This document shows, piece after piece, positions 2,212 to 53,595 of a stretch of DNA of 64,000 nt. Below the pieces are notes generated by a model. That model saw nothing but the letters and a program-made list of their open reading frames with translations, searched no databases and had not been told where the DNA came from. The DNA comes from Candidatus Cloacimonadales bacterium. Its GTDB lineage: Bacteria; Cloacimonadota; Cloacimonadia; Cloacimonadales; JAFGVF01. Made by a program: the position numbers and the translations under genes. The DNA is taken from positions 416,001 to 480,000 of the forward strand of contig CAXXOU010000004.1 in the NCBI GenBank assembly GCA_963677495.2. The letters run 5' to 3'. Every line of letters starts with the position of its first letter. Position 1 is the first letter of the stretch.

Positions 2212-2524
2212 AAAAAACGGGTAAAGCGACCATTCTAAAAGTAGTAACATGAACTATGAGTCGATTCGTAAGTGTACCATTTAGAAGGTTTACAACCATT
2301 CTAAAGGTAGTTTAAATGCAATTCATTTATCCGTTTTTTCCAAAATTGCCCTGCTTCTTCCCTTCCAGTTCCCTGACATGGAAAGGTGTTTCAAAGGTTT
2401 CCCACAGGTGACCCTCTCGTGACCCTCTCGTGGAATGCCATAAGTTATTCACATCGTGTGGATAACTTGAATATTTATGGAAAACCTTCATTAGTCAGGG
2501 AACCGGAAGGGGGGGAGACAGGCA
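2212..2524. repeat. Two nested fold-back elements containing an 11-nt-period array
   Basis: 2212-2225 pairs with 2327-2340; 2347-2377 pairs with 2494-2524; five 11-nt units at 2382-2436. Confidence 0.75.
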
Positions 2525-2664
2525 CAAATCAATTTCAATCAAAACCGGGTAGGTTTACCTTGGTATCATTTAGAAGTTCCTAATTCATAATTAGTAATTC
2601 TATTCGTAACTCATCATTAACACAAAACTTAAGAAGTAGAATGAAAATAGTTGCAATTTTTTAT

Positions 2665-2693
2665 TTGACATGATTTCGGTGATTAAATAGGTT
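2665..2693 (+). promoter_or_regulatory. Putative sigma70 promoter of the tRNA-Asp pair
   Basis: TTGACA, 17 nt spacer, TAGGTT, upstream of the tRNA. Confidence 0.5.
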
Positions 2694-2740
2694 GCTTTCA
2701 CACGCAGTTGGCGTGGATATAGAGTGAATTAAGAGTATGC

Positions 2741-2817
2741 GGGGGTGTAGTTCAGTTGGTTAGAACGTCTGCCTGTCACGCAGAAGGTCGCGAGTTCGAG
2801 TCCCGTCACTCCCGCCA
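2741..2817 (+). tRNA. tRNA-Asp (GTC), copy 1
   Basis: Cloverleaf with GGGGGTG/CACTCCC acceptor, TCTGC-CTGTCAC-GCAGA anticodon arm, TTCGA T-loop, G73 discriminator and encoded CCA. Confidence 0.97.
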
Positions 2818-2854
2818 GTTTTTAAAACAAGCATACTCATTAATAGATCCCTTT

Positions 2855-2931
2855 GGGGGTGTAGTTCAGTTGGTTAGAACGTCTGCCTGTCACGCAGAAG
2901 GCCGCGAGTTCGAGTCCCGTCACTCCCGCCA
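2855..2931 (+). tRNA. tRNA-Asp (GTC), copy 2
   Basis: Identical to copy 1 except the variable loop (AGGCC vs AGGTC). Confidence 0.97.
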
Positions 2932-2936
2932 GTTTA

Positions 2937-2969
2937 AAAAGCCTATTCACGAAAGTGGATAGGCTTTTT
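2937..2969 (+). terminator. Rho-independent terminator after the tRNAs
   Basis: AAAAGCCTATTCAC-GAAA-GTGGATAGGCTTTTT. Confidence 0.8.
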
Positions 2970-2973
2970 CTAT

Positions 2974-3170
2974 ATGAAGTTAACCGACTGCTTGTCGGGG
3001 CGTAGCTTTTAGCGAAGACTGATGTCGGTTTGCCTTGTAACGCATAGTTAAGTAGCTGATTGTATCGTAATTATTACCATCAAAGGTTACATGGCAGTAG
3101 CATCGACACAGACGATGCAGTCCAAAAGTGCTAACCCCGAAAGAGTTACCTCTGAGTAGCTAAAAAAGTG
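2974..3170. repeat. REP-like hairpin module (TTAACCGAC..GTCGGTTTG ... TGCAGTCCAAAA GTGCTAACCC) with a nested 32-nt insertion
   Basis: Homologous to 7425-7578; partial copies at 7301-7423, 18971 and 53776. Confidence 0.75.
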
Positions 3171-3327
3171 ATAGTACGATTTCACTTAAACATTTTGTAA
3201 ACCACTTCACATTCAACTAAAAAACTTCTTGTGTTCTAAAGATAATTGGAAATAGTATGTCACCAAGAATATCGGATGGAGATCTTAATGATACTCGGTG
3301 AGAAGGTCTTGCTAAAGGTGGTGTAGT

Positions 3328-4107
3328 ATGAGTAAATTATTCGACAGGCCAAAAGTAGTTCTTTATGTTTGTGTATCTATAGATGGGAGAATTACATTCG
3401 GGCCAAATACAACAATGTTTGATGCTTTTAACCTACCTGAACTTCATCAAATGCTTTGCACAAATGAAGAATGGGAAATCTTTTCTAAAGCAGTATTTTC
3501 TATTCATAAACCTGATATGTTTCTGGAAGGGAGTAATATGGTAGTAGCTGAAAATGAAGCATTAAAGGAACTTCCTAAATTCAAGGAAGACATAAATAAT
3601 TTGTTTGAAGATTTTATACCGGAATATATTTTGAACCATAAAAACAGAAAAACATGGACAGCAATAGTTGATGGAAGAGGTAGATTTCGAAATGGCTATA
3701 CGGCCGTTACAGATGACCCTGAAACATATATGGTACATCTTACAACCGAAACTGTTCCTCCCGATTATCTGGCTTTTTTGAGGTCAAAAAATATTCCTTA
3801 CATCATAGAAGGGCAGAATAAAGTTAACCTTCCTAAAGCATTGCAAAAAGTAAAAACAAAACTCAATGTAGATACAATTGCAACAAGCTCCGGTGGACGC
3901 TTGAGTGGTGCCCTTATTAGAAGTTCTCTCCTTGACGAGGTAAATTTACTACTCAGCCCTATAGTGATAGGAGGAGATAAAACACCTAAACTATTTACTT
4001 CTCCTGAATTGAATTGGCCTTCAATAAAACCTAGTATACTCACCCTTTTAGAGATGAAAGATATGAAGAATGGTAAGGTCTGGTTAAGGTATAAAGTTAA
4101 TTCCTAA
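3328..4107 (+). CDS. RibD C-terminal/dihydrofolate reductase family protein
   Basis: RPKVVLYVCVSIDGRI, GG..SGALIRSSLLDEVNLLLSPIVIGG and VWLRY motifs. Confidence 0.85.
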   Translation: MSKLFDRPKVVLYVCVSIDGRITFGPNTTMFDAFNLPELHQMLCTNEEWEIFSKAVFSIHKPDMFLEGSNMVVAENEALKELPKFKEDINNLFEDFIPEYILNHKNRKTWTAIVDGRGRFRNGYTAVTDDPETYMVHLTTETVPPDYLAFLRSKNIPYIIEGQNKVNLPKALQKVKTKLNVDTIATSSGGRLSGALIRSSLLDEVNLLLSPIVIGGDKTPKLFTSPELNWPSIKPSILTLLEMKDMKNGKVWLRYKVNS

Positions 4108-4125
4108 TCAATTTTCATGTCTTAA

Positions 4126-4665: not shown

Positions 4666-4757
4666 GGAATTTGGCTCATTTAGTCACATACAGCTCAATG
4701 TCACTTCAAACATGTGATTCGACTATTTCCTCAAGATAATATATATATTTTCAGATC

Positions 4758-5318: not shown

Positions 5319-5380
5319 AATTACCTCTAACTCAATAGCTGTTTCTTAACTTTTTTTGTCAAGCCATAAATATAGAAAAA

Positions 5381-5459
5381 TAGAGAGTCTACTCTAATAT
5401 TAAGCAGGATGTATAGTGCAGAGGTATATAAATATCTTGACAGTAGAGTGAATGCTCTA
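5381..5459. promoter_or_regulatory. Two TAGAG-N6-CTCTA palindromes, putative TetR operators
   Basis: TAGAGAGTCTACTCTA (5381-5396) and TAGAGTGAATGCTCTA (5444-5459); the second lies directly after TTGACA at 5437-5442. Confidence 0.65.
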
Positions 5460-6320: not shown

Positions 6321-7268
6321 ATGGATTATAGCTTTGGAAAGAATGGTTGGACACCGGATAGAATTAGGGACTTAACAGGCAAAACATTCCTAATAACAGG
6401 TGCTACAAGTGGCACAGGTTTTGAAGCAGCTAAGATACTTGCATCCAAAGGTGCAAAAGTAGTAATGCTAAACCGGAACCCTAAGAAATCAGAAGGTGTG
6501 ATTGCAACTATCAAACAGGAAATCGGTAGCAAAGCAGATGTTTCTTACATAACTATGGACCTTGGAGTTCAAGCTTCAGTAAAAAAGGCAGCATCAGAGG
6601 TATTGAATACAGTTTCACGCATCGATGCTTTGATGTGTAATGGAGCGATAGCACAAGTACCCAAGCAACAGTTCACAGTGGATGGTTTTGAGAGCCAGCT
6701 TGGTGTTAATCACTATGGACACTTTACTCTACAAGCCCTGCTCTTTCCCTTGATCGAGAAATCTAAAGGTCGAATAGTTACGGTGGGAAGTATGGGCTAT
6801 AATATGGGCATTAAAACAATCAAGTTCGACGATATGAACTGGGATAAGAACTATAAACCAAACGATGCTTATAGTCAGAGTAAACTAGCGCAGATAATGT
6901 CTATTTATGAATTGCAGGATAGATTAGCTAAAGCCGGCAGAACAGATGTTAAAGCTTATGCCTGCCATCCCGGCTCCTCAAAAACATCACTCATAACAAC
7001 AAGTGGTAATCTGGCAACTCGCATCATGTTTAAACTAATGACCTTATCACCGATGGTTCAATCCGCAGAGAAAGGAGCATATCCTGAACTTATGTGTGCT
7101 ACAGAACCTAATCTTGATCAGAAAGGTTTCTATGGTCCGACAGGTCGCAGTTACTGGGTAGGTCCGGTAGGCGAGTGTAAGCTTGAACCACATGCAAAGG
7201 ATAAGAAAGTATCAAAGAGATTATGGGAAGTCTCAGAGAAAGCAACTGGTATTAAGTGGGATATATGA
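6321..7268 (+). CDS. Short-chain dehydrogenase/reductase (retinol dehydrogenase-like)
   Basis: ITGATSGTG, YSQSK catalytic motif, ACHPG. Confidence 0.9.
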   Translation: MDYSFGKNGWTPDRIRDLTGKTFLITGATSGTGFEAAKILASKGAKVVMLNRNPKKSEGVIATIKQEIGSKADVSYITMDLGVQASVKKAASEVLNTVSRIDALMCNGAIAQVPKQQFTVDGFESQLGVNHYGHFTLQALLFPLIEKSKGRIVTVGSMGYNMGIKTIKFDDMNWDKNYKPNDAYSQSKLAQIMSIYELQDRLAKAGRTDVKAYACHPGSSKTSLITTSGNLATRIMFKLMTLSPMVQSAEKGAYPELMCATEPNLDQKGFYGPTGRSYWVGPVGECKLEPHAKDKKVSKRLWEVSEKATGIKWDI

Positions 7269-7270
7269 AT

Positions 7271-7940
7271 ATGGATTTAACCGACGATGTCGGTCAAAAT
7301 GTGGAGTTAACCGACTGCGTCGGTTTGTCTTGTAATAGATAGTTTATTGGCAAAAATTAGTTTCATTATGCTTTCTGAAGGTTACATTGGCAGTTGCATC
7401 TACATAGTATATGCAGTCCAAAATATGGAATTAACCGACAATGTCGGTTTGTCCTGTGGCTCTTGGTTTAATGGCTAATTTTGTTTCATTATGCTTTCTG
7501 AAGGTTCCATTGCAGTTGCATCTACATAGTATATGCAGTCCAAAAGTGCTAACCCTGAAAGGGTTACCTATGAGTAGCACCGAATACAATTCGGGGTTTA
7601 GGAATACAGATTTATCCTAACCCCAACGGGGTTAAATTTGTTCAAGATTATGTTATGGCATATTCGACCCCGTTGGGGTCGCTGGCTCTTATGGGACATC
7701 CGACCATGCATTGCATGGCTACTCACATGCTATCCCTCTGGGATAAGCAAAGAGGACAGCAATAATGCTACCCTCATTTAACATAATCTCATACTTCAAG
7801 AAATGTGGGATAATGGCTTCAATGTTTATTAGCTGACTTATGTTATAGCATTTTATCCTGAAGGGATAACCTAATAATAGCCATGGTGCTTTAGCTCATG
7901 GATAAGATTTGATTTCCAAATCCCGACCCTGAAGGGGTCG
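7271..7940. repeat. Cluster of REP/MITE-like modules: tandem ~124-nt units plus 17-nt palindromes
   Basis: Units 7301-7423 and 7425-7545; palindromes TAACCCTGAAAGGGTTA, TAACCCCAACGGGGTTA, CGACCCCGTTGGGGTCG, TATCCCTCTGGGATA, TTATCCTGAAGGGATAA, CGACCCTGAAGGGGTCG. Confidence 0.8.
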
Positions 7941-8049: not shown

Positions 8050-8752
8050 GTGAGTCTCTTGAGGCTCTCTGGGGAAAATTAATAAGAGACTGACAAGATA
8101 AGGGGTAGAAAATGAAAGCTAATGTATCATTATTATGATAGTGGAATGAGAGACTCCAGCATTGCAATGAGAGCATAAACCATTCCCCAGAACCACCAGA
8201 TTCATCTGGTGGCTTTGAACCATGTTTAAGCTTAATCCCCTCCCTCTTCGCTTTCCTAATGAAAGCGTAGAGGGAGGGGAGGAAAATAGTTTTAGAGTAC
8301 CTCCACCACTTGAAAGTGGTGGTTCTGGGGAAGCCAATATCCTATAGCCACTAAATATTACTACTCAATCGCTCCCTTTCAATTCCAACTCGACACTTAC
8401 TTCTCACTTACTAGACACTTACTACTCTCTTACTCAAACCAGTAAGTTAGACACAAGTTGTTGATAACTAACTAGATTTTGAATAGTATTTATTGAATGG
8501 GAGGAGAAAGAGGGAAGAAGTATTATCTCCCCATTCTTTCCTTAATCTCTCAGCAGTAATCGCTGGTAAACACTTGGCCAACCCTTGCCCAACACTTGGT
8601 CAATCCTTGGCCTATTTACCAAGAATATACCATTTTATAACCAAGCTGTTACCATTTTAAAGCCACTAATTATTCGAGAAAGTAGAAGGGGCAGGGAGTG
8701 AGATTAGATTAATGTTTGAGTAGGTTAAAAAGGTCAGGGAGGCTGTAGGATA
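8050..8752. repeat. Nested fold-back region with 11-nt-period arrays
   Basis: 8183-8198 pairs with 8317-8332; 8338-8349 pairs with 8741-8752; CACTTAC-like core at 8394/8405/8416/8427; CTTG core at 8573/8584/8595/8606. Confidence 0.75.
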
Positions 8753-9307: not shown

Positions 9308-9578
9308 GAGTTCCTCCAGATTGTTTAGTGTAACTATAATATATTGAGTTAAAATAGTATTGCAAGAAAAAGAATAGTCACAATCAAAATAATAGAAAAG
9401 AGATGCTTGTTCATAATAGGCTTATTTGCATAGATATATTTACATTAGCAGGTTTACTGACCTACATGAAAAGATACAAAGAATTAGTTGACATACTTAA
9501 ATTATCTACAAGGATGGCGTTAAAGATTTCTGTGTTAAATAGATAGATTTGATTTCCATAATAACTTTGGAGAGTGAA

Positions 9579-12500
9579 ATGGTAAAACCTAATTGGGATA
9601 ATTTTAAAGCAAAATTTAGTGAAAATCCTCAAAACAATTTCGAATGGTTATGTTACTTGCTATTCTGCAAGGAATTTAATCAAGAACTAGGCATTTTTCG
9701 ATATAAAAATCAATCCAGGATAGAAACTAATCCTATTATAATAGATAACGATGTGATAGGATGGCAAGCAAAATTTTATGAATCTTCTCTTTCAAGACAT
9801 TCTGATGAACTGCTAAAAATTGTTGAAAAAGTAAGAGATGACTATCCTAATATTACTAAGTTATACATTTATAGTAATGAAGAATGGGGGCAAGGGAGGA
9901 AAAAGGGAAGTAAACCAAAAGGTTTAAAAGCGATAGAAAAATTAGCCACAGAAAAGAAAATAAGTATAGTATGGAAGACTGCTAGTTTTTTTGAATCAGA
10001 ATTTGTTACTACAAGTAATGCAGTTATAGTAAAGCACTTCTTTACTTTCGATCGAAGTATTGTTACTCTAATGAATGAATTGAAAGAACATACTGAGTGT
10101 ATTTTAAATCTCATTCAATCAGAGTTTTGCTTAAACGACAAGAAATTTGAGATAAATAGGGATGCGTATGTTGAAGAACTAAACAATGAAGAAAAACCCG
10201 TTTCAATCTTGAGTGGTTCAGGAGGAGTAGGTAAAACGGTAATAGTTAAGAAATTGTATAGGAGACTGAGAAATAATATACCATTTTATGTTTTCAAAGC
10301 TACGGAATTTGAACTAAGTAATATCGATAAAATATTTACGGAATTCAGTTTCTATGAATTTACAGAAGGGCTTCGAGAGCAAAAAGATAAAATAATTGTT
10401 ATTGATTCTGCAGAAAAACTGCTAAACTTAAACAATACTGACCCTTTTAAAGAGTTCTTATCCATTCTTTTGAAAGATAGATGGAGAATAATTTTTACTA
10501 CAAGAAATAACTATTTAGAAGACCTAAACTACCAATTCTTTGAAATCTATAAGATAGCACCAACAAATATCACGATTCAAAAATTAGAATTAGGAGAACT
10601 TTTCGAAATTGCAGAAGTGTATGATTTCTTAATACCTAATGATGAAAAATTGATAGAGTTAATTAGAATTCCATTTTATCTAAACGAATATATTTCATTA
10701 TATGATGATGATTCAAAAGAGTTAAAATATGTCGAATTCAAGAATAGAATATGGAAAAAGAGTATTAAAAAATCACAACCTAACAGAGAAGTTTGTTTTC
10801 TGCAGATTGCATTAGAAAGAGCTAATAGTGGGCAATTCTTTCTTAACCCCGATTGTAATACAAATACTCTAGCAGACTTTACAAAAGATGGTGTATTGGG
10901 TTACGAAGAGGCAGGTTACTTTATTTCTCATGATATCTATGAAGAATGGGCTCTTGAAAGAATAATTGAAAGGGAGTTTAAAATAAAGGATTCAGATTTG
11001 ACTTTCTTTAATAGAATAGGTCACTCTCTCCCAATGAGAAGGAGTTTTAGAAACTGGTTATCAGAGGGATTGCTTTTAAATAGAAACGATATCAGAATCT
11101 TTATTGATGAATTAATTAAGAATCAGGAAGTTGAAGCATTTTGGAAAGATGAAACTTTTGTATCAATTCTTCTGTCAGACCATTCAGAAACATTTTTTGA
11201 TAACTTTCAAGATGAATTGTTAGAAGATGGATGTTTGTTATTAAAAAAGATTACCTTCATTTTGAGAATTGCTTGCAAAGAAGTTGATAACAATTTTTAT
11301 GCACAAATTGGTTTGAAGTATTTCAATCAACTAACTTTAAAACACATTCTAACAAAACCCAAGGGACAAGGTTGGGAAAGCACTATTGAGTTCGCTTATG
11401 TGAATTTGGAATCAATTGGTTTTGGGCAAATTTCTTTCCTAATCCCCATATTGGTTGAATGGAACAGGAAAATAGGAAAAGGAAAAACAACAAGGTTAGC
11501 AGGTCTAATAGCACTCAGGTTTTATCAATGGATTATGGGAAACGATGTCTTGTATTATTACAAAGATAGAGTAAAAGAGTTAATTTCGATTATTCTTCTA
11601 GGTTCTGTAGAGTTGAAATCTGAGTTAGAGCCAATTTTTCAAAGTATAATAGAAAATAAATGGAAGAGTTATGGTGATCCATATTATGGATTTTCACTTA
11701 CAATACTCACAGAAATGATAGGATATACTATAACAAAAGCTATGCCAGAATGTGTTATGAAGCTAGCCTATCTATTTTGGTCTAAAGATGTTCAAGAAGA
11801 CGATAGTTTGTATCATTCTGCCATGGAGAGTGAACATCATTTTGGAATCGAAAAGGTGGGTAATGGATATTCCCCAGCAAGTGCTTTTCAAACCCCTGTT
11901 TACTGGTTGTTAAATACTAGACTAAAAGAGACATTAGATTTTATTCTAGAATTTACTAACAAATCTATAGAAGAATATGCTTCATCCGGATATGATCATA
12001 GTGTTTATCAAGTAGATGTGCATATTGATGATAGTATTAAGATTGAACAATACTCAAGTCATTGTCTTTGGAATATGTATAGAGGTTCGGGCTCACCTGT
12101 TTGCCCTTATCTACTACAATCTATACATATGGCATTGGAGAAGTATTTTTTAAATACTGGCAAGATTAAAGACTCACAAGAGCTTGAGTCTTGGTTAATA
12201 TACCTTTTGAAGAACTCGAAATCCGCTTCTATCACTTCTGTAATTACAAGTGTTGTTTTAGCTTTCCCAGAAAAAACATTTAATGTTGCAAAAATTCTGT
12301 TTAGGACAAGAGATTTTATTAGGGAAGATACACTTAGAATTGTTTTTGAGTCTGACGCAAAATCATTATATTCTTTTAGTAAGGAGCTCGGATTTAAAAA
12401 TACTGAAGTATATGATGATGAAAGGATAAAAACATGTGAAGATAAGCATCGCCAGTTTTGCTTGGAACACATTTTTCTGCAATATCAGTGGTTTAAGAGC

Positions 12501-14300
12501 GAGGAAATCAGTGATGAAGAAGTTAAAGAAAGACAAGAAGAATTATGGCGAATTTTAGATGAATATTATTCTGAATTATCTTCTGAATCTGAACAGACTG
12601 ATGATGATAGAACATGGAGATTGTTTTTAGCTAGAATGGATAGAAGAGGGATGAAGGTTGAAACAGAAGAAACAGATAATGGAATAGCAATACAGTTTAT
12701 TCCTAATGTTACACCTGACATTAAAGAGCAGAGTGACAAAGCGGTAACAAAACACAATGAACAAACAAAGTATTTCTCATTATTAATGTGGTCGAAGCAG
12801 AGATATGATTATAATGAGCAATACAAACAATATAAAAAATATGAAGAGGAACCCAAACTTGCGCTATTTGAAGCAAAAGAGATATATGAAAAAATAGCCA
12901 CTAATAATGAAACTATTATGAATTCAGGAGATGAAGACTTCCTCTTGTTTCATCATTCAATCCCTGCTTATGTTTGTAGTGTGTTATTACGAGAGTTTCT
13001 TGATTTGCTAACAGATGAGGATAAAGCACTGTGTTCAGAGATATTGATGTCTAAAGCGGTGTCAGCTCTAAATCCAAAATATAGCTATCAAATGTCTGAT
13101 GGTGTTCAAGCAGCGATATCTGCATTACCAATTCTTTTTAAAATAGTCCCAGAAGAAAAAGGATCAATAAAATTTGTTTTGTTGATGTGTCTTTTCTTTA
13201 ACCATACAATTGATCAAATAAATAAGTTCAGCATTTTCTCTATCATGGCGATCAAAGAAATGTGGAAGGATAATGCCTTAGATGCTTACTCAATATTTCT
13301 TGGTTACATTTACTTAAGACCTAAGTATGAAGACCTAAGTGAGGGATATCGCTCAGAGAGAAATCACATGATCAATTTTCGCTTTAATGACCGGGCTCCA
13401 GCAAAAGAGTTTATCGAAAACCATGAAGAAGAAATTAATGCGATAATTGATAATACAATTACTCTGAGAAGCTTAGAAGACCTAAGATCTTTAGATGTAA
13501 TTATGTTAGAAATCTTATTCAAAATGATACCTACTAAAATTGATGAATCGGAGCTTAAAGAAATTACCTTGTATGTTGTTAAGACTATATTTCATAATCT
13601 CTTAGATAATGGAGATGATGATAAAGTAAAAAGTATAAAGTATAGCTTTCTTAGGTTTTATGCCAATTTTATATTAAATATACCTGAGACTGAAATAGTG
13701 GACTATTTAGCACCTGTACTAAGCAGCTTCAGACTCTCAGAGTTATTTGCAGATTTGTTAAAAGATATTGTACTTGCTGAAGATAGGCTGAATACATATG
13801 ATAATTTTTGGTTTATTTGGGAAACAGTCCAACCACAATTGATTGAATTAAGTAATAACTCTGACAATTCTTGGTACCGGGATAGCATTATAAAAAGCTA
13901 TCTATTTGCGAATATCCCTTGGAAGGAAACAGCCCAAGACTGGCGTTCATTTAAAGATGAGAACGCTAATTTCTTTGCAGAGATTTCAGAAGAAATTGGA
14001 CACTGCCCCTCAGTTTTGTATGCTATATCGAAATTGTTAAATGATATTGGGAGCCCATATTTAGATAAAGGTGTATTTTGGATTAATACGATTCTTAGAA
14101 ATAACCCAGGTTACAGTGATAAGAAGTTAGAAGTAAATACGATTTATTATATAGAGAATGCTATGCGTAAGTATGTGTTTAAACATAAAGAGGAGATCAA
14201 AAAGAAAAAGATTCTCAGAAACAAGCTTATACTGATAATGAATTTTCTGGTTAGTCAGAATTCAGAAATCGGTTATATGCTAAGAGAATCCATAATTTAG
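9579..14300 (+). CDS. avs4: AVAST type 4 antiphage STAND NTPase with N-terminal Mrr-like nuclease
   Basis: N-terminus MVKPNWDNFKAKFSENPQNNFEW resembles Avs4 as I recall it; GWQAKFY nuclease motif, Walker A GSGGVGKT, Walker B IIVIDSAE, long helical C-terminus; ATG at 9579 with GGAG RBS. Confidence 0.88.
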   Translation: MVKPNWDNFKAKFSENPQNNFEWLCYLLFCKEFNQELGIFRYKNQSRIETNPIIIDNDVIGWQAKFYESSLSRHSDELLKIVEKVRDDYPNITKLYIYSNEEWGQGRKKGSKPKGLKAIEKLATEKKISIVWKTASFFESEFVTTSNAVIVKHFFTFDRSIVTLMNELKEHTECILNLIQSEFCLNDKKFEINRDAYVEELNNEEKPVSILSGSGGVGKTVIVKKLYRRLRNNIPFYVFKATEFELSNIDKIFTEFSFYEFTEGLREQKDKIIVIDSAEKLLNLNNTDPFKEFLSILLKDRWRIIFTTRNNYLEDLNYQFFEIYKIAPTNITIQKLELGELFEIAEVYDFLIPNDEKLIELIRIPFYLNEYISLYDDDSKELKYVEFKNRIWKKSIKKSQPNREVCFLQIALERANSGQFFLNPDCNTNTLADFTKDGVLGYEEAGYFISHDIYEEWALERIIEREFKIKDSDLTFFNRIGHSLPMRRSFRNWLSEGLLLNRNDIRIFIDELIKNQEVEAFWKDETFVSILLSDHSETFFDNFQDELLEDGCLLLKKITFILRIACKEVDNNFYAQIGLKYFNQLTLKHILTKPKGQGWESTIEFAYVNLESIGFGQISFLIPILVEWNRKIGKGKTTRLAGLIALRFYQWIMGNDVLYYYKDRVKELISIILLGSVELKSELEPIFQSIIENKWKSYGDPYYGFSLTILTEMIGYTITKAMPECVMKLAYLFWSKDVQEDDSLYHSAMESEHHFGIEKVGNGYSPASAFQTPVYWLLNTRLKETLDFILEFTNKSIEEYASSGYDHSVYQVDVHIDDSIKIEQYSSHCLWNMYRGSGSPVCPYLLQSIHMALEKYFLNTGKIKDSQELESWLIYLLKNSKSASITSVITSVVLAFPEKTFNVAKILFRTRDFIREDTLRIVFESDAKSLYSFSKELGFKNTEVYDDERIKTCEDKHRQFCLEHIFLQYQWFKSEEISDEEVKERQEELWRILDEYYSELSSESEQTDDDRTWRLFLARMDRRGMKVETEETDNGIAIQFIPNVTPDIKEQSDKAVTKHNEQTKYFSLLMWSKQRYDYNEQYKQYKKYEEEPKLALFEAKEIYEKIATNNETIMNSGDEDFLLFHHSIPAYVCSVLLREFLDLLTDEDKALCSEILMSKAVSALNPKYSYQMSDGVQAAISALPILFKIVPEEKGSIKFVLLMCLFFNHTIDQINKFSIFSIMAIKEMWKDNALDAYSIFLGYIYLRPKYEDLSEGYRSERNHMINFRFNDRAPAKEFIENHEEEINAIIDNTITLRSLEDLRSLDVIMLEILFKMIPTKIDESELKEITLYVVKTIFHNLLDNGDDDKVKSIKYSFLRFYANFILNIPETEIVDYLAPVLSSFRLSELFADLLKDIVLAEDRLNTYDNFWFIWETVQPQLIELSNNSDNSWYRDSIIKSYLFANIPWKETAQDWRSFKDENANFFAEISEEIGHCPSVLYAISKLLNDIGSPYLDKGVFWINTILRNNPGYSDKKLEVNTIYYIENAMRKYVFKHKEEIKKKKILRNKLILIMNFLVSQNSEIGYMLRESII

Positions 14301-18970: not shown

Positions 18971-19312
18971 TATGGAGTTAACTGACTATTTCGGTTTGTC
19001 TTGAAACAGATAACTTAGTGGTTAGTATTAGTTCCATAATTCCATAACTTCCAATCTACACCCAATCCAATTCCCGTTATCATTAACGTGTTTCTAACTG
19101 GAAGCTAACGGGTAACAGATAAGTAGTAAGAAGATGTATTGAAAACGAATCATGGGCTTGGCGCGCAGACATCTTTGTCCGTGTATTGTCCTGAAAAAAA
19201 GCCACAGATTTCTCGGATTATCTCAGGCAAGAGTATTTCGACATTGCATGTCGAATTCGTAGGACACGCTGCCAGCTTGTCCACTTAGCGGAGCTAAGTA
19301 GCTCCACTGACG
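18971..19312. repeat. Mosaic of a REP-like module, an 11-nt-period array and GTA(G/T)-initiated hairpins
   Basis: TATGGAGTTAACTGAC..TCGGTTTGTC at 18971; CCAATC at 19051/19062, TAAC at 19084/19095/19106; GTATTTCGACATTGCATGTCGAA at 19233; GTAGGACACGCTGCCAGCTTGTCC at 19259. Confidence 0.65.
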
Positions 19313-24218: not shown

Positions 24219-24310
24219 TCACATGCTTAACTCTAACCCCTCCCTTGGGTTTCCCTTGCAAGCCAAGGGAAGGGCAAGGGAAACCCAAGAGTAAAATAAG
24301 AGTAGTGAAT
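24219..24310. repeat. Fold-back element with 11-nt-period arms
   Basis: CCCTTG at 24242/24253; CAAGGG at 24264/24275, CAAGAG 24286, TAAGAG 24297; the arms are reverse complements. Confidence 0.75.
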
Positions 24311-37464: not shown

Positions 37465-37917
37465 TCATACAATCCAACTATCCAAACTCTGATATCTCGT
37501 CACCTTTGGTAGAAGCTCATTCTCAACAGCTTCACTGATTGTTCTGATTGGTAGGGCATTATCAATAATGTAAGTAATATCAATTGTCTTCAAATCAATC
37601 TCCGGATGTAGCTTCTTGAGTTTATACATCATAATCGTAAAGACATTGTAGGCATTATAGATACATTTTTCACCTACTGTCTCCAAGTTTCTGTTTGTTG
37701 CATAGTCCATTAGGTCGATTCTGTAAGCATCAGATGTGCTGTGATATAACCGACTAAGGTTTTGTGACTGGTTCTTAAGTGTGATGTTAGTATGGTCAAT
37801 CTTTCTTCTCTTGTATGCTCTTGCAATCAATACATCGCTTTTACGGTACCTATAAAACACGAGCTTGCCGATTTTGCCTACCAGTGCTCTGGTTATTGTG
37901 TCTAATTGAACTCTCAT
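37465..37917 (-). CDS. Hypothetical 150-aa protein with a basic N-terminus
   Basis: AAGGAG RBS; N-terminal GKIGKLVFYRYRK; homologous C-terminal fragment at 53605-53772. Confidence 0.8.
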   Translation of the reverse strand: MRVQLDTITRALVGKIGKLVFYRYRKSDVLIARAYKRRKIDHTNITLKNQSQNLSRLYHSTSDAYRIDLMDYATNRNLETVGEKCIYNAYNVFTIMMYKLKKLHPEIDLKTIDITYIIDNALPIRTISEAVENELLPKVTRYQSLDSWIV

Positions 37918-38387: not shown

Positions 38388-38499
38388 AATCTGAGATATT
38401 TAACCGCGGATGAACCACAGGTAAACCACGCCCAAACGGCGGGAGGCGTGGTTAACCCGTGGTTTACCCCTGGTCAACCCGTTGTCAACTGCCAGACTT
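38388..38499. repeat. Fold-back element with 11-nt-period arms
   Basis: AACC(G/A)C at 38402/38413/38424; CGTGGTT-like at 38447/38458/38469/38480. Confidence 0.8.
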
Positions 38500-44073: not shown

Positions 44074-46053
44074 ATGAAAAGTAACGTTAATCCTCAGGAG
44101 AACTACAAAAGAACCCGTGACCTTTGTGGTTGGGTACCTCGTAGTGAAGCAACTCGTAAAACTTATGAAGATATAGGCTTCATGAGTGGTTTAGAAGTTC
44201 ATCAACAACTCAATTCTAAGAAGAAGCTATTCTGTCGATGCCCGGTTGGAATATATCAGGATGCCGAAGATTTCGATACAGAAATTGTCAGGCATATGCG
44301 CCCAACTCTTAGTGAACTTGGTGAGTACGATGGTACAGCTTTAATGGAGTTCAAGACAAAGAAAGAGATTGTCTACAGAATTAAGAATGTCACAACATGT
44401 ACTTATGAACTTGATGATACTCCACCCTTCCCTGTTAACAGAGAAGCATTAGCAATTGCAACAGAAATCTCTCTTCTTCTTAAACAGAATCTTGTTGGAG
44501 AATTTCATATAATAAGAAAGCAATACCTTGATGGTAGTATTCCAACCGGATTCCAGAGAACCGGTATTATCGGTATCGAAGGTGAGATTTATCCGAAAGG
44601 TCGACGTGTTGGCATTATTCAGCTTAGTATTGAGGAAGACTCATGCCGTGAAGTTTCTGATATTGGGCATAGAAGAATTTATAGAACAGACAGACTCGGT
44701 GTTCCACTAATTGAAGTAGTTACTTATCCTGATATGAAAGAACCCGATGAGGTGCGTGATGCAGCAGAATACATCAGATACCTAACCAGAAGTACCGGCA
44801 AAGTAAGAGTCGGTATTGGTGCCGGACGTGAAGATGTAAACGTTAGTGCTACGGGTGGTACAAGAATAGAGATAAAGGGTGTTGCCCATATTAGCTGGAT
44901 TCCGGAGCTTACACATAATGAAGCTTTCCGCCAAAGAAGTCTTGTGCTACTGAGTGAAGAGATTAAGAAACGCAAAATAGATTTTGAGAAATGGGATATT
45001 ACTTCATCGGTTCTTCCTGCTGAACATGTAGCCGGAATGGTTCCAGAAGAGTTTGATTTAGAAGGGAAGAAAGTAGTTTCTGTTAATCTTCCTGACTTTA
45101 AAGGTTTACTAAGCTGGTTCACACAACCTGGTCAGACTTTTGGTAGTGAGATTAGTCAGAGACTGAGAGTGGTTGCCTGTCTTAATCAACCAAACATGAC
45201 TCATTCAGAAGCTCTCAATCCAATATTTGATGAGCAAGGTTTTGCTCATATTGCAAATGCACTCAAAGCAGGAGAAAATGATGCACAAATAGTATTCTTT
45301 GCCCCTGATGAGGATATAGAGACCGCTCTTGAAACAATCAAAGAACGTTGTCAGATGGCATGTGATGGTGTGCCTAAAGAGACTAGAAAGTCATTTGAAG
45401 ATGGAACAACAATCTTTGAACGTGTGCTTCCGGGTGCAGATAGAATGTACCCTGATACTGATTCAGCTCCAATACCAATCGAAGAAAGTTTTATCGAAGG
45501 AATCAGAGCCCAGATGCCTAAGTTCTTACAAGAACAGATTGCTCTTTTACATGAATGGGAAGCTCCTGAAGATACTCATGATTATCTCCTAAGAAATAAC
45601 CTTATTAGTTGGGTAGAGCTTATTGCGAATAGGTATGAGATTGACCCAAGTAAAGTTGTAACTTTAATCGCTCATAGATTGAAAGAGCTTGAAAGAAAGC
45701 ATGATGGAATCATCAACTTAGAAAACATACTTGCCATGTTCGAGTTCCTTAAAGAACACAGAATGAATTATGAGTATGCTTATGAGATGCTTAAATATGT
45801 CTATCTGAATCCTCATGATGACATGCAGGATTGCGCTGTGAAAGCGGGACTTACAATCGTGCATCCTGATTCAATCGATGAACTTATTAAAGAGGAGATT
45901 GCTAAACTTAATGAGCAGCAAGCAGCTCTTGACGTTGCACCTAAAACTAAGTACATTATGGGTAGACTTAGATTCAGAGTGATTGGTAACCTTCCAATGG
46001 AAGCTGTTGCTGAATCTATCACAGCAATCCTTACAGGTAGAGAGGAGGAATAA
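44074..46053 (+). CDS. gatE: Glu-tRNA(Gln) amidotransferase subunit E
   Basis: GLEVHQQL..KKLFCRCP, RPTLSELGEYD, DGSIPTGFQRT, LSIEEDSCR, DRLGVPLIE, GAD insert, LPGADRMYPDTD. Confidence 0.92.
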   Translation: MKSNVNPQENYKRTRDLCGWVPRSEATRKTYEDIGFMSGLEVHQQLNSKKKLFCRCPVGIYQDAEDFDTEIVRHMRPTLSELGEYDGTALMEFKTKKEIVYRIKNVTTCTYELDDTPPFPVNREALAIATEISLLLKQNLVGEFHIIRKQYLDGSIPTGFQRTGIIGIEGEIYPKGRRVGIIQLSIEEDSCREVSDIGHRRIYRTDRLGVPLIEVVTYPDMKEPDEVRDAAEYIRYLTRSTGKVRVGIGAGREDVNVSATGGTRIEIKGVAHISWIPELTHNEAFRQRSLVLLSEEIKKRKIDFEKWDITSSVLPAEHVAGMVPEEFDLEGKKVVSVNLPDFKGLLSWFTQPGQTFGSEISQRLRVVACLNQPNMTHSEALNPIFDEQGFAHIANALKAGENDAQIVFFAPDEDIETALETIKERCQMACDGVPKETRKSFEDGTTIFERVLPGADRMYPDTDSAPIPIEESFIEGIRAQMPKFLQEQIALLHEWEAPEDTHDYLLRNNLISWVELIANRYEIDPSKVVTLIAHRLKELERKHDGIINLENILAMFEFLKEHRMNYEYAYEMLKYVYLNPHDDMQDCAVKAGLTIVHPDSIDELIKEEIAKLNEQQAALDVAPKTKYIMGRLRFRVIGNLPMEAVAESITAILTGREEE

Positions 46054-47435
46054 TGAGCGATAATACACAAGGATATAAAGGCCCTAGTAAAGCTATTCTT
46101 GAGAAGTTCAATGTTCGAGTTTGGGGGGATACTGAGATTCTCACCACTCGTGGTACTTTTAAAGGTATCATTCTTCCAAGAGCCGAGAACGATGATGACC
46201 AGCACATTGTACTTAAACTTATTACAGGTTACAATGTTGGTATCGACATAAAGACTATTACTGATATGAAAGAGATTGGTTATAAGAAAGCCAATTATAA
46301 GATCCCTGAAAAAGAGTTCCCATATACAGAAGGTATGCCAAACCTAAAGCTCTTTGGTACCGGGGGTACAATTGCATCACGTCTTGATTATAGAACCGGT
46401 GCTGTAATTCCGGCTTTCTCACCAGGTGAACTGTATGGTGCTGTACCTGAGCTTGCGGACGTATGTAATCTGAAGACTGAGAAGCTATTTGCAGTGTTCA
46501 GTGAGAACATGGGACCTCGGCAATACAAAGAACTAGCCATTGCTATTGGTAAAGAGATTGAGAATGGCATAGATGGTATCATGATCGGTCATGGTACCGA
46601 TACTCTTCACCACACAGCTGCTGCTTTAACTTTTATGGTACAGAACTCACCTGTACCTATCGTACTTGTTGGTTCTCAACGCTCTTCCGATAGACCTTCA
46701 TCTGATGCTGCTTTAAATCTTATTCATGCTGCAAAAGCTGCAGGTGAATCTGATATAGCTGAAGTAATGATCTGTATGTTTGGTCCTACCTCTGATGAGT
46801 ATGGTTTATTGCATAGAGGAACAAGAGTTCGTAAGATGCACTCATCTTTTAGATCAACATTCAGAACCATCGGTGACGTACCTCTAGCTACAATTAATAG
46901 AGATGAGATTAATACAATTAAGCAGAATTATAACAAGCGTAGAAGTGATAACAATGTTACTATCAAACCTTTCTTCGAAGAGAAAGTGGGAATGGTCTAT
47001 TATTACCCTAATATGCAACCGGATATGATCGATTCAATGGTTGATAATGGGTACAAAGGTATTGTTATTGCAGGCACCGGACTTGGTCATGTTAACAAAC
47101 CACTTTACCCTGCAATTGAACGTGCAGTGAAGAAAGGTGTTCATATCTTCATGACTGTTCAAACTCTTTGGGGATATGTTCATATGTTTGTTTATGACAC
47201 AGGTCGTGATCTTATGGCAAAAGGCATTATTCCTGCTGAGAATATGCTACCTGAAGTTGCATACATCAAACTCGGCTGGGCTATTGGTCAGACTGATGAT
47301 CCGGAAGAGGTTAGAAAGCTTATGCTTACACCTGTTAATGGTGAAATCACAGAAGGTGAACCATATAATAGTTACCTTATCTTCCAGGGTGGTACTCCTG
47401 AAGTCGAGAAGTTCATCAAGAATATTCATTTATAG
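46053..47435 (+). CDS. gatD: Glu-tRNA(Gln) amidotransferase subunit D
   Basis: GatD-type N-terminal domain (HIVLKLITGYNVGI) plus asparaginase core TGGTIASRLDYRTGAV, HGTDT, GSQRSSDRPSSD, RKMHSS. Confidence 0.93.
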   Translation: MSDNTQGYKGPSKAILEKFNVRVWGDTEILTTRGTFKGIILPRAENDDDQHIVLKLITGYNVGIDIKTITDMKEIGYKKANYKIPEKEFPYTEGMPNLKLFGTGGTIASRLDYRTGAVIPAFSPGELYGAVPELADVCNLKTEKLFAVFSENMGPRQYKELAIAIGKEIENGIDGIMIGHGTDTLHHTAAALTFMVQNSPVPIVLVGSQRSSDRPSSDAALNLIHAAKAAGESDIAEVMICMFGPTSDEYGLLHRGTRVRKMHSSFRSTFRTIGDVPLATINRDEINTIKQNYNKRRSDNNVTIKPFFEEKVGMVYYYPNMQPDMIDSMVDNGYKGIVIAGTGLGHVNKPLYPAIERAVKKGVHIFMTVQTLWGYVHMFVYDTGRDLMAKGIIPAENMLPEVAYIKLGWAIGQTDDPEEVRKLMLTPVNGEITEGEPYNSYLIFQGGTPEVEKFIKNIHL

Positions 47436-47489: not shown

Positions 47490-47688
47490 TACTCAGGGTC
47501 TTCTATGAAATGCTGAAAACTTGGTTTTCATAGCTTTCATAATTAGATTGAAAGAAAGCTTGCTTGTTGGAATCATAGCGATTACTCATTACAACTGTCG
47601 TAATGATTCTAACAACAGAATCACCTACACAGTGGCTTTTGCAATAACTTAGCTATATTTACTGCCCTTTTATCCCTCTTTAACTGCT

Positions 47689-47816
47689 CTATCCATCAAC
47701 GCACTGTGTTTGCACTGTGCACGCACTGTGATCCCACTGTCAACCCACTGTTTCACTGGGTGCACAGTGCGTGCACAGTGGAAAAACAGTGGGATGACTG
47801 CGTTTTGGTGGATAGT
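47689..47816. repeat. Fold-back element with 11-nt-period arms
   Basis: CACTGT at 47702/47713/47724/47735/47746; ACAGTG at 47764/47775/47786; closing stem CTATCCATCAA/TTGGTGGATAG. Confidence 0.85.
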
Positions 47817-50280: not shown

Positions 50281-50315
50281 ATTTATTAACTAACCTAACT
50301 TACATTGGAGGTAGA

Positions 50316-52130
50316 ATGAAGCAATGGATTAAGTTATGGCTATTACTTTTAGTTTCCGCACTAATCTTGGTTGGTTGTTTAAATGACGGTGATGATGATG
50401 TCCCTCATTTTAACGAGATTTCAGAGTTAGAGGTTCCTGAGAATTTTGATTGGAACAATATTCAAGAAGTTAATGTTGATGTGACTGTGATTGGTTTACC
50501 GGAAGCAAGAGCAAATTCAAGAGTTGAACTGCTTGATGAGTCAGGTCAGATTCTTACAGCCGGTATTCTTCAAGACAACACTGTAATGTTAAAAGCTAGA
50601 TATAGTGACCTTGGTGGTAACCTTCAAGTGTATTTACCGGCATTCAACTTAGTTAAACGTCTTAAAGGTGGATTAGTCGATTATAAAGTTACTCTTCAAA
50701 TATCGAATGTTGAAAGTAAGGATTGTGTAAACTTGTTTGGCAATCCCGGATTCGAAGATAATCAGGAATACGATGATGGTGGAGACGATGACGATGACGA
50801 TGGTGAATGGGAAGAAAGTTCTGACCTAACTGGTGTTTTGTATCCTGCTCCGCAGAATTATCACCCACCTATTGATGGTAACTGGTATTACTATCAGCAA
50901 AACAATAATCATAATATAAGACTTGTTGAGCAAAACAATAATACTTATGTTTCATTAGCAAAACATAGTTTCCTTTATCAGGCAGTAGCTGTAAACGGAG
51001 GTGGTGAAGCCAGCTTCCAGTTTGATATTAGTAATTATAATTGGAACTATTTTAGCTTACAGATACATCTTACAAGCTATGCTGCTGATGGTTCAATGAC
51101 CGGTGATGAATACATATACTATAATTCATATTGGGATGGTATTTATGGTGATTGGCAGAATCTAAGCCATGATTTTGTTGTTCCTGATAACACCGTAGAA
51201 ATTGCTTTCACACTGTATGTTAACTCAAACACAGTTAGATTTTGGGTAGATAACTTTGGATTATGTTTGGAAAACCAGTTAGTTGACACTGATAATGATG
51301 GTGTAAGCGATGAAGAAGATGATTATCCTGATGACCCGACTAAATCAGTAAAAGTGAAGTACCCGACACAAGGTCAGCTTATTGTAGCTTTTGAAGACTT
51401 ATGGCCTGATATGGGTGACTATGACTTTAATGACTTGGTATTAGGTGTAAACCAAGAGTTTGGCTTAAACGCGAATAATGAATATACTTACATTAAAACT
51501 GATCTGGAAGTTCGAGGTAATGGTGCAACTATCAATAATGTTTTAGCAATGCAACTAGATTGGTTAGAGTCAATCGGTGGAACTAACACCTATACTCACG
51601 TTGGAGATAACAATATGCAGCTTGTCCCTTCAAATGGCGATATGTTCATTGATGGAAACAAAGTTGTCATTATTAATGGTGTACTTGATGGCTTAAGCCC
51701 ATACTATCAAAACAACGGTATCGGAGTTTCAGCAAGCTATCAGAACTTTAGCTTTGAAGTGACAATGGACCCAATTAGTAGTACAACTGCGTCACTTTCA
51801 CCAGATTTCTTTATCTACGATTACTTCAATCCTCAGAAAGAGATTCACTTACCTGGTAGACCTGCTACAGCAAATGCAGACATGAATCTTTTTGGAACAG
51901 GTGATGATGCATCTATTCCAACCAGTGACATCTGGTATGTGACTGATACTAATCTCCCTTGGGGATTTGAGATTATAGATCATACAGGCAACTATATGCA
52001 TCCGCTTGAGAATATCTCGATTTTGAATGCATATCGCTACTTCGGTAACTGGGCTAATTCCGGTGGACTCTCTCATATGGATTGGTTCTTGGATGCTGAT
52101 AATGATTCTGTATATCATACATCTTACTAA
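50316..52130 (+). CDS. LruC-domain (DUF4842-like) lipoprotein
   Basis: Lipobox LVGC; DTDNDGVSD..DDYP; AFEDLWPDMGDYDFNDLV; EIHLPG; LPWG. Confidence 0.8.
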   Translation: MKQWIKLWLLLLVSALILVGCLNDGDDDVPHFNEISELEVPENFDWNNIQEVNVDVTVIGLPEARANSRVELLDESGQILTAGILQDNTVMLKARYSDLGGNLQVYLPAFNLVKRLKGGLVDYKVTLQISNVESKDCVNLFGNPGFEDNQEYDDGGDDDDDDGEWEESSDLTGVLYPAPQNYHPPIDGNWYYYQQNNNHNIRLVEQNNNTYVSLAKHSFLYQAVAVNGGGEASFQFDISNYNWNYFSLQIHLTSYAADGSMTGDEYIYYNSYWDGIYGDWQNLSHDFVVPDNTVEIAFTLYVNSNTVRFWVDNFGLCLENQLVDTDNDGVSDEEDDYPDDPTKSVKVKYPTQGQLIVAFEDLWPDMGDYDFNDLVLGVNQEFGLNANNEYTYIKTDLEVRGNGATINNVLAMQLDWLESIGGTNTYTHVGDNNMQLVPSNGDMFIDGNKVVIINGVLDGLSPYYQNNGIGVSASYQNFSFEVTMDPISSTTASLSPDFFIYDYFNPQKEIHLPGRPATANADMNLFGTGDDASIPTSDIWYVTDTNLPWGFEIIDHTGNYMHPLENISILNAYRYFGNWANSGGLSHMDWFLDADNDSVYHTSY

Positions 52131-52145
52131 TAACTAAATAAAATT

Positions 52146-52172
52146 AAAAGAGCACCTTCGGGTGCTCTTTTA
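52146..52172 (+). terminator. Rho-independent terminator
   Basis: AAAAGAGCACC-TTCG-GGTGCTCTTTT. Confidence 0.85.
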
Positions 52173-52233
52173 CATGCAACCCAATCACGCTGATCGGTCT
52201 TGGACTAAAATCAAAAAACTCTTGGGAACTAAT

Positions 52234-52756
52234 ATGTATAGGAAACTGATAATACTTTTAATTTCTTTTTCAATCATTGCATGCAGTAAGCATAAGAAAA
52301 TCTTGAAGCCGGTGAATATGTCTAATCGTAGAACTCCGATGTTCTGGTACGATAACGTGGATGGAGAGTTGAGAGCTAATGGATATGCATGCAAAAGGTC
52401 TATTAGAAGCGCAAAGACTTTTGCAAAAAATGAGAGTATGATTAATTTAGCTAATATGATTAAGCAAGAAGCTATGAGCTTTATAAATGAGAATTTTAGT
52501 GACACTGACGCACAAGCTCTATCAACAATGTTTAATCAGAACGAGACGATTAAACTGTCCGGATACAAAGAAGCAGGGTGTGAAGTTAGAGAGGAAAAAG
52601 AAAGGTAAGAATACCTTCTTTGAATGTTACTATCAAGCTTCAGTTAAAGATGAGCAAGTTCTAAACATACTTTTAAATCAACTTAACTCATTACCTCAAA
52701 CTGAAGAAAGAGACTTGCTTCTGGAAGCTATTAACAAAAAACAAAATGGGGAGTAA
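52234..52756 (+). CDS. Putative lipoprotein (LPP20-like), frameshifted at an A-run near 52595
   Basis: Lipobox IIAC; removing one A from GAAAAAG joins ORFs 52162-52608 and 52487-52756 (..EVREEKKGKNTFFECYY..). Confidence 0.6.
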
Positions 52757-52761
52757 TACGC

Positions 52762-53231
52762 ATGGATAAAGATAGATTATTATCACTGCTAGTTCCGGGT
52801 TTAAACGGAACACTATCACTTAACTTGAACAATAGCAGCTTAAACCAGTTAGTTAAAGAATCTATGGGGGAGAAGCAGATTTTATTGAGGGACTTGAGAT
52901 AGAGAATGGATATATTCTTGCAAAGGTAAAGAAAGTTATAACTCTCAAGCTTAAGCTTGTTCCTGAGATAGTAGAATTTACAAGAACTTCCCTAAAGATA
53001 GGTGTCGTACCCCTTGGTGTCCCTGATTCATTTCTAAAAGTGATAGTAAAAGCTGTCGAAGTCATCGGTTTACCAGTCTCATATACCGATAGCATTATTA
53101 TAGATGTTAGCTCTAAACTTATTGAGGCAACTGATGGAATGCCAATTTCAGTGAATGAACTTATCGATAAAGCCAACATTGCCTTTAACTGCCAGAAAGA
53201 TATTTTTAGAATTGATTTGATTCTTCCTTAA
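52762..53231 (+). CDS. Hypothetical protein, frameshifted at G-run 52866-52870
   Basis: ATG 52762 after a GGGGAG RBS; adding one G continues into the frame of ORF 53040-53231. Confidence 0.55.
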
Positions 53232-53337
53232 GCGATATTGGTTTGATTATGAGTAAAATTATCCTCCTTGATTGATTTAAACGTATCGTAGAATCAATCT
53301 CCGAATCATGACGATGATTCCCAGCAATTAAAACTGT

Positions 53338-53595
53338 ACCTTTGGAATGGTCAAAGACCTTGCAAATGGTACACTTCGAAGGAAGGAACACCCCACCGTG
53401 CTGGGAGTATGTCCTGCGAATTCACCATTTGCAAGGTCTAAAGACCATTCCAAAGGTGGGTAGATGTGTGGTAAAAGTCTGATATCCACACCTACTTTGC
53501 TCCCGCTCCTCCACCGGTCCTCTCGGGGATAGCCGGGAGAGGACCGGGAGTGATCCACGAGTGGGTCAGGAGAGGATACCTGATTTATATCAGAC
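53338..53595. repeat. Two fold-back elements, the second with 11-nt-period arms
   Basis: 53338-53370 is a near-perfect inverted repeat of 53424-53457; GTCTGATAT (53477)/ATATCAGAC (53587) closes CCGGGAG-like units at 53533/53544/53555. Confidence 0.8.

Follow-up and report, generated by a model that had tools for sequence, protein, structure and literature searches.

Why should loci that differ in sequence carry their short repeated words at one and the same spacing of 11 nt? This question is raised by a 64,000-nt stretch of the genome of a Candidatus Cloacimonadales bacterium (3.41 Mb, 37% GC, four contigs), which is called the window in the following (G000:C4:416001-480000, G000 being the genome that holds it; the relatives compared are G001, G003, G004, G005, G013, G014, G024, and G027). 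A preliminary description, made from the window sequence alone, had listed eight intergenic loci with imperfect 11-nt repeats and regarded them as fold-back elements that share an architecture but are unrelated in sequence. The loci turned out to be dispersed repeats of a class that is specific to this lineage of Cloacimonadales; its members are non-coding and small (about 90-230 nt) and were amplified as whole modules, often joined to other modules. Tentatively, with a probability of about 0.45, we read the phased words as one-face landing pads for an oligomerising DNA-binding protein, embedded in small mosaic mobile repeats.

The 11-nt period and the families that carry it

All eight loci are present in the window at the positions given in the preliminary description, and six of them received a call of period 11 from Tandem Repeats Finder (TRF; calls at 2408, 8394, 8569, 24263, 38447, and 47699-47780). 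The two loci that start at 19051 and 53477 have no such call, and their word spacings, read by eye, are 11, 11, and 7 nt and 11, 11, and 12 nt, respectively. A strict detector, which demands at least nine exact 5-mer recurrences at lag 11 inside 66 nt, caught four of the eight loci in the window, compared to no region at all in 20 block-shuffled windows. The intergenic placement held for these four loci, which lie wholly outside open reading frames (ORFs) of at least 100 amino acids; the ORF calls were made by length and are crude.

The period is not a peculiarity of the window. TRF reported 554 rows of period 11 for the whole genome, versus 171 of period 10, 195 of period 12, and 114 of period 11 after block shuffling. 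Lag autocorrelation, which had been proposed earlier as a check, was run on 457 kb of intergenic DNA, and the recurrence of 5-mers at lag 11 was 7.2 times that of the shuffle. The values for other lags were 4.2 times (lag 22), 2.3 times (lag 7), 1.6 times (lag 10), and 1.3 times (lag 12), and coding DNA exhibited period 3 alone. After collapse by similarity, 11 clusters of period 11 with at least three members were left, versus none to two for any other period from 5 to 26. Because several clusters survive this collapse, the excess does not stem from a single amplified family.

The period and the positions thus stood, whereas the view of the loci as unrelated one-off sequences with a general ability to fold back did not. 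Each locus belongs to a dispersed multi-copy family that occupies 6-83 places in the genome, and it is the words that differ among the families. A total of 409 loci with period 11 or period 22 were grouped into 16 multi-member clusters and 112 singletons, the latter mostly coding, by single-linkage clustering, which merges composite elements; 318 of the 409 lie mostly outside ORFs. When arrays with at least three indel-free units were counted, the words fell into 19 families that differ from one another by more than three mismatches, 12 in G000 and seven in three relatives. The arrays comprise two to six units of 11 nt in total length each, and nearly all families write one short word per 11 bases. 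The eight loci and their parts are as follows, with the approximate numbers of places found by blastn.

2365..2506, no strand assigned, locus 1: representative of the "palindrome element"; 28 places
2365-2377 and 2494-2506: outer inverted repeat of locus 1
2408-2432: direct array of locus 1, 2.3 units of GTGACCCTCTC (TRF)
2445-2465: palindrome of locus 1, TTATTCACA-tcg-TGTGGATAA, a DnaA-box-like pair
8394..8433, no strand assigned, locus 2: direct array of 3.7 units of CACTTACnnnn, without inverted partner, folding energy zero; 9 places
8540..8680, no strand assigned, locus 3: copy of the CCAAGG/CACTTGG family, with an array at 8569-8612, followed by a part with a 22-nt period at 8618-8659; the end starts with CTCTCAGCAGTAAT; 37 places
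19051..19112, no strand assigned, locus 4: a worn member of the AACGGG/TAAC family; 18 places, mostly partial
24219..24310, no strand assigned, locus 5: hairpin with CCCTTG words in one arm and CAAGGG words in the other; 6 places
38388..38499, no strand assigned, locus 6: AACCACGGG family, with direct words in the left arm and CCGTGGTT words in the right arm; 40 places
47628..47807, no strand assigned, locus 7: full 180-nt CACTG element; 83 places
53477..53595, no strand assigned, locus 8: hairpin of CCGGGAG-type words with the closing stem GTCTGATAT/ATATCAGAC; 8 places

The palindrome element is the clearest case of an architecture that is kept while the words are replaced. A separate search yielded 25 matches to the element of locus 1, and the motif TTATCCACA-N3-TGTGGATAA is present in 29 copies, all of which have an array on one side and none on the other. 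The palindrome has a stem of 9 bp, two to three repeats of 11 bp are situated at a distance of 12-13 nt from it, and the outer inverted repeat encloses both. Three subtypes share the palindrome and the 12-13 nt offset but have different words, namely CACGAGAGGGT, AGGGAGGGTCT, and CCTTGGTGGCT. In the sister species G001 just the palindrome part of the element is recognisable. The copy in the window is situated between a protease gene and tRNA genes; the two tRNA genes directly downstream (2741-2814 and 2855-2928) have equal scores and are 114 nt apart.

The DnaA-box-like palindrome raises the question whether the palindrome element and the AACCACGGG family are arrays for the binding or titration of DnaA, with 9-mer boxes that are 2 bp apart. 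The low-affinity DnaA arrays of Escherichia coli oriC are indeed composed of 9-mers spaced by 2 bp. In the present genome TTATCCACA-N3-TGTGGATAA occurs 20 times exactly and 29 times if near variants are included, TTATCCACA is about three-fold more common than similar 9-mers, and the AACCACGGG words fit seven of the nine box positions in our reading. Among 80 loci listed from other contigs, in many phyla, the palindrome is found at one locus per contig (one of the 80 loci holds two), as would be expected of a true DnaA-box pair. However, most words, e.g., CACTG, CCAAGG, CACTTAC, and CCGGGAG, are unlike a DnaA box, and dnaA is about 100 kb away from the sole cluster of perfect boxes. A role of these two families in DnaA binding is therefore regarded as very improbable. 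The sole cluster of at least four perfect TTATCCACA boxes is located at G000:C1:766198-766411 and dnaA at C1:868310-869614; to judge from these positions, the replication origin may not adjoin dnaA.

The CACTG element of locus 7 contains five CACTG words at 11-nt intervals, a sixth word that is offset, and then three CAGTG words at 11-nt intervals. The segment described earlier (47689-47816) corresponds to its array part plus the closing stem. The length is exactly 180 nt in 17 of 64 aligned full copies, namely, those that match the anchor patterns. The spacers are conserved from copy to copy like the words in the 64 copies, and because both are common to the copies, the arrays must have been present already in the founder of each family and have spread as a whole. 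This argues against iterative copying at each locus, one of the origins considered in the preliminary description: the loci are amplified copies of family masters with shared spacers and words. The elements are flanked by further repeat modules, as seen for the CACTG family, and are thus mosaics. No preference for an orientation or for a side of the neighbouring genes was found with the crude ORF calls. In four public runs, all of them contigs from one sample of one study, the contigs break at the repeats, and some of the joints are between repeat copies.

The distribution in relatives extends this picture. In 31 relatives searched, the CACTG family and the locus 1 family were found in genomes of the same genus alone. 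TRF was applied to the first 400 kb of seven relatives, and the same layout with other words was detected in G001, which belongs to the same genus, and in G013 and G014, which belong to other families of the order. In the same 400-kb portions, G004, G005, G024, and G027 had neither an excess of period 11 nor a recurrent unit. The claim that architecture rather than sequence is conserved was thus borne out across families and genera, and the recurrence of the layout in different branches of an uncultured order suggests a single machine or constraint that they have in common.

Fold-back structures, RNA, and mobility

The mirror arms and long closing stems that had been ascribed to most of the loci are a property of one half of them. 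Four loci fold as single-stranded DNA far better than shuffled sequences, i.e., locus 7 (z -8.1), locus 5 (z -4.8), locus 8 (z -3.9), and locus 6 (z -2.2), whereas folding is weak or absent for the array of locus 1 (z +1.8), locus 4 (z -1.5), locus 3 (z -1.1), and locus 2 (z +0.3). Outer inverted repeats or closing stems exist in loci 1, 7, and 8, but not in the direct-only loci 2 and 4, and the ends are blurred by adjoining modules. When 272 arrays were inspected for reverse-complement words within 160 nt, at least two were found for 65 arrays, one for 64, and none for 143.

The arrays that do fold suggest an explanation at the level of single strands: the elements might be hairpin substrates, similar to repetitive extragenic palindromic (REP) sequences, of an HUH/Y1 transposase of the type of REP-associated tyrosine transposases (RAYTs), or they might form RNA hairpins that stabilise or terminate transcripts. 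The z-scores of the four folding loci, from -2.2 to -8.1, are in agreement with this, and the genome contains five IS200-type, RAYT-like Y1 genes. The combination of a palindrome with direct repeats also recalls the double-strand origin of a rolling-circle plasmid (PMC9943647). On the other hand, four of the eight loci do not fold clearly and the 143 arrays mentioned above have no inverted partner. Furthermore, compensatory changes were absent from the two families compared, in which most changes on one side only disrupt a pair (10 of 14 and 8 of 14 cases, respectively, at low variation). Among 36 copies of the AACCACGGG family, neither a conserved consensus hairpin nor a compensatory change was found. 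The lack of a strand or gene-side bias is not in favor of transcript hairpins either, and at the gathering score no Rfam family other than two tRNAs was found in the whole window. The earlier proposal of structured RNAs has thus not gained support.

A link to RAYTs was rejected because the hairpins that border each of the five Y1 genes are different ones, of the REP type, and no period-11 array is present within 330 nt on each side, the nearest arrays being 434 to 18,712 nt away. Taken together, we consider an explanation by single-strand hairpins unlikely. The exclusions that had been made from the beginning, i.e., that the loci are neither ordinary REPs nor terminators nor CRISPR, hold: a period of 11 is not a repeat-spacer arrangement, no Rfam family matches, and the hairpins next to the Y1 genes are others.

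Insertion sequences (IS) of the genome were compared with the arrays as a possible source of the repeats. An IS21 element of 2360 bp with IstA and IstB is present at G000:C1:188674-191033 and in about 15 more copies. Its ends consist of two repeats of about 24 nt rather than of 11-nt words, with target duplications of 7-8 bp (16 copies), and it was rejected as a source. Fourteen full-length copies are at least 99.7% identical and one further copy is 98.4% identical; from this near-identity and the target duplications the element appears to have been active recently, and one copy resides inside a CACTG element. An IS3-family element (orfA with a helix-turn-helix, orfB with rve; G000:C2:141733-143151 and five more copies) was also rejected, its ends being unrelated to the arrays. 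All six copies generated 3-bp duplications and are located 0-35 nt outside the CAGCAGTAAT end of CCAAGG-family repeats, which suggests that this element prefers the border of these repeats as a target.

Collections of mobile DNA were searched as well. The CACTG element had no match in the phage collection, and the locus 1 element had none in the plasmid collection. In viral contigs with three GCACTG words no preference for a spacing of 11 was apparent (40 stretches with period 11, 40 with period 10, and at least 120 with period 12), and two of 43 viral loci resemble G000 beyond the word itself. Two T7-like phage contigs from IMG/VR (L326:5380-5430 and L327:1-110) contain four and 10 tandem 11-nt units, respectively, with GACCACGGG. 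These arrays occupy or adjoin what is presumed to be the end of the genome, and they share their word with the host AACCACGGG family, possibly by chance. The contigs encode a T7-type terminase or a T7-like RNA polymerase, plus a GP88-family gene.

A proposed one-face landing pad and a candidate protein family

With a spacing of 11 bp, all words would lie on one face of the DNA duplex. A sequence-specific DNA-binding protein that oligomerises would then use the arrays as cooperative landing pads, and inverted arrays would represent two such ends that are brought together. The reader protein could be the mobilising factor itself, or a host or initiator-type factor that is exploited by the elements. 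The words would turn over fast between lineages, while the geometry of the reader would hold the spacing. The spacing is exact although the words change, and lags 10 and 12 are not enriched, and a protein that oligomerises along one face is the simplest explanation for this combination. The 11-nt period is kept by word-distinct families in G001, G013, and G014, which we count in favor of landing pads, as we do the lack of an orientation or gene-side bias and of compensatory pairing changes. Phased binding, which was among the first interpretations, therefore still appears to be the best reading, and the architecture and the exclusions stated at first stood, in contrast to structured RNA and local iterative copying.

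Several results weigh against this reading. No reader protein was identified. A partition of the units into a conserved word and a free spacer was not significant in any of 17 families at p <= 0.05, and the combined p was 0.53. An inverted partner is missing from about half of the arrays. Signs of mobility are also scarce: 14 of 17 examined copies of the CACTG family had no abutting direct repeat that would represent a target-site duplication, and no autonomous element with matching ends was found in a comparison that covered IS21 and the IS3-like element, but IS110 and IS200-type elements not in detail. In same-genus genomes no clean empty site was found downstream of gatD, because synteny is lost at this point, where G003 contains a diverged copy and G001 another gene. 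Our confidence is held at the level given above because the test for words and spacers was not significant, and because a neutral model of inherited unit length competes with this reading.

According to this neutral model, the families descend from one ancestral element with an 11-nt minisatellite, in which slippage renews the words while the unit length is inherited, without any protein that reads them. The variable positions are not significantly clustered inside the units, as this model would have it, and neither a reader nor a target duplication has been found. The palindrome subtypes keep their flank and offset and differ in the word, and GAGGGT is common to the first units of all of them; this suggests descent with concerted change. 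However, families without detectable shared flanks in other Cloacimonadales families (G013 and G014) also have a period of exactly 11, and periods 10 and 12 are not enriched. The arrays are stable in the 64 copies of one family, which speaks for little ongoing slippage, and the inverted arrays require an additional explanation. Neutral inheritance thus seems rather unlikely to us, but it is an alternative to be taken seriously.

If one-face binding is pursued, a protein family encoded in the same genomes comes into consideration, which is represented in the window by one gene.

37465..37917, minus strand: gene for a member of a Cloacimonadota-specific family of proteins of about 150 residues, candidate array reader

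The family has 23 matches in G000 and is limited to Cloacimonadota; the nearest named homologue of one of the proteins of the G000 genome is from "Candidatus Zophobacter franzmannii". At least nine matches (9-23) are found in G000, G001, G013, and G014, all of which have recurrent period-11 families, compared to zero to three matches in G004, G005, G024, and G027, none of which has such families; G024 and G027 had been predicted to be negative before they were inspected. It is conceivable that the arrays are addresses, and that the radiated paralogs each recognise one word family, with its words one turn apart, and control or mobilise their own elements. The correlation of copy number with arrays across eight genomes supports this idea, whereas the adjacency controls and the fold searches count against it. 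At first sight the adjacency is striking, with arrays next to 13 of 16 non-A paralogs, but this is due to the long and repeat-filled gaps upstream of these genes. In G000, 13 of 19 family genes were adjacent to arrays, versus 258 of 469 genes with a long upstream gap (p 0.35), i.e., there is no excess, and the numbers in three relatives were 2 of 7 versus 36 of 193.

The fold of the protein did not lend support to DNA binding. No match to Pfam or NCBIfam was found, and the best E-value against sequence profiles of the PDB was 0.21. A model could be predicted with a predicted local distance difference test score (pLDDT) of 87, and in a Foldseek comparison of this model with PDB and viral structures no match had an E-value of 0.001 or lower. 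VIA-align gave a best Z of 3.9 for the whole model, with many ribbon-helix-helix proteins at 2.9-3.9, which is far below a meaningful level, and a best Z of 3.4 for the N-terminal domain alone. No significant match to any DNA-binding domain was thus obtained in these searches, and in the Atlas the family is represented by unnamed Cloacimonadota clusters alone. That the paralogs are the readers of the arrays is accordingly judged to be quite improbable. If it were true, this would be a protein-and-address system without a described counterpart.

Two further observations were made on this family. A C-terminal remnant of a family member (residues about 93-143) is encoded at 53596-53748 on the plus strand and begins exactly at the end of locus 8; it seems that the repeat of locus 8 has replaced the front of that gene. 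Genes of the family have two copies of a paralog-specific 8-mer just upstream, followed by a TATAnTTATAGAGG-like motif. The 8-mer is TTATTCCT for the gene at 37465-37917 and its orthologue in G001 (L162), and it is repeated about 20 nt further on, while the upstream words of other paralogs are TTTTCAC, TTTGTCAC, or CGTGCAC. Judged by its layout, the pair of 8-mers together with the TATAnTTATAGAGG-like motif resembles a promoter to which a separate operator belongs.

Bacteria often possess small dispersed repeats, but an internal grammar as regular as that of the arrays is rare: in this genome, a dozen or more families that are unrelated in sequence adhere to exactly the same spacing of one helical turn. 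If a reader exists, it is betrayed by the words, and an uncultured lineage becomes approachable via synthetic arrays and expressed candidates. If there is none, the arrays represent a clean natural case of an inherited unit length with turnover of the sequence. With regard to annotation, the elements account for long gaps between genes, for breaks of contigs, and for short ORFs that are spurious in genomes of this kind.

The remainder of the window contains another repeat class, distinct from the period-11 arrays, and several genes of interest. At 7268-7545 a tandem pair of 124-nt units is present, both of which contain a GTTAACCGACnACGTCGGT hairpin. The genes include Type IX secretion sorting domains, archaeal-type GatDE, an FeFe hydrogenase, and Rex, a content that suggests an anaerobic member of the FCB group. 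A full-length gene for the anti-phage nuclease Avs4 (9549-14300; NF041815, 1953 bits) and a gene for a protein of 1404 amino acids lie between loci 2-3 and locus 4. GatE and GatD of the archaeal type of Glu-tRNA(Gln) amidotransferase are encoded at 44074-47435, in a bacterium, and this DNA is found in 15 of 31 relatives. An FeFe hydrogenase of the group A6 type is encoded by two adjacent ORFs at 57049-59063, which match profile residues 2-244 and 260-570, respectively, and probably represent either a split gene or a frameshift.

Comparison with known systems

No account of genome-wide dispersed 11-nt arrays in bacteria was found in the literature, with subscription journals outside the scope of the search. 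The heptamer tandem-repeat sites of Xanthomonas and Nostoc are the nearest described class. They comprise 2-26 units per site, are scattered and mostly intergenic, and 70-75 sites in Xanthomonas form inverted pairs with the potential for stem-loops (Rehm et al., 2015, PMC4692102). Both classes thus have short tandem units throughout the genome, mostly intergenic and partly as inverted pairs. However, the heptamers have a period of 7 and essentially one G-rich word, for which a G-quadruplex has been proposed (PMC4692102), whereas the arrays described here have an exact period of 11 and at least 12 words, and they form part of longer modules that are conserved and multi-copy. Transposed non-coding satellite families have been described as rare in a survey of satellites in prokaryotes (Subirana and Messeguer, 2019, PMC6749651). 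They resemble the present families as non-coding tandem repeats that are scattered through the genome, but were reported there with long repeat units and for Leptospira and Methanocella only; neither "11 bp" nor helical phasing turned up in a term search of that text (PMC6749651).

A general resemblance exists to REPs, to bacterial interspersed mosaic elements (BIMEs) with their RAYTs, and to miniature transposable elements with inverted repeats (MITEs), which are also small, non-coding, multi-copy, intergenic, often hairpin-forming, and mosaic, and which attract insertion sequences. BIMEs, for example, are the target of IS1397. Unlike them, the arrays have no link to Y1 genes, no target duplication, and no parent insertion sequence, and the internal phasing of words by 11 bp is foreign to both groups. 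CRISPR arrays are composed of 24-48 nt repeats and unique spacers of similar length, whereas the whole unit has 11 nt here. In arrays of the oriC type the words would be recognisable 9-mers at 2-bp distances beside a strong DnaA box; this genome does have perfect pairs of such boxes, and among the array words AACCACGGG alone is box-like.

The closest geometrical likeness is found in plasmids. The bind locus of RepB of pMV158 consists of three direct repeats of 11 bp that are spaced by one helical turn, near a hairpin, and in the double-strand origin of this rolling-circle plasmid a nick-site hairpin is combined with 11-bp repeats (PMC9943647). ParR of plasmid R1 binds the five-fold iterons of parC (PMC2241845). 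In these systems three to five 11-bp direct repeats follow each other at a distance of one turn, and the proteins are bound on one face, as has been proposed above for the arrays. They are, however, single functional plasmid sites beside their own gene, in contrast to about 300 chromosomal copies in many families, without an adjacent cognate gene. The geometry of pMV158 RepB and R1 ParR nevertheless provides a precedent for the reading of the phased words as landing pads.

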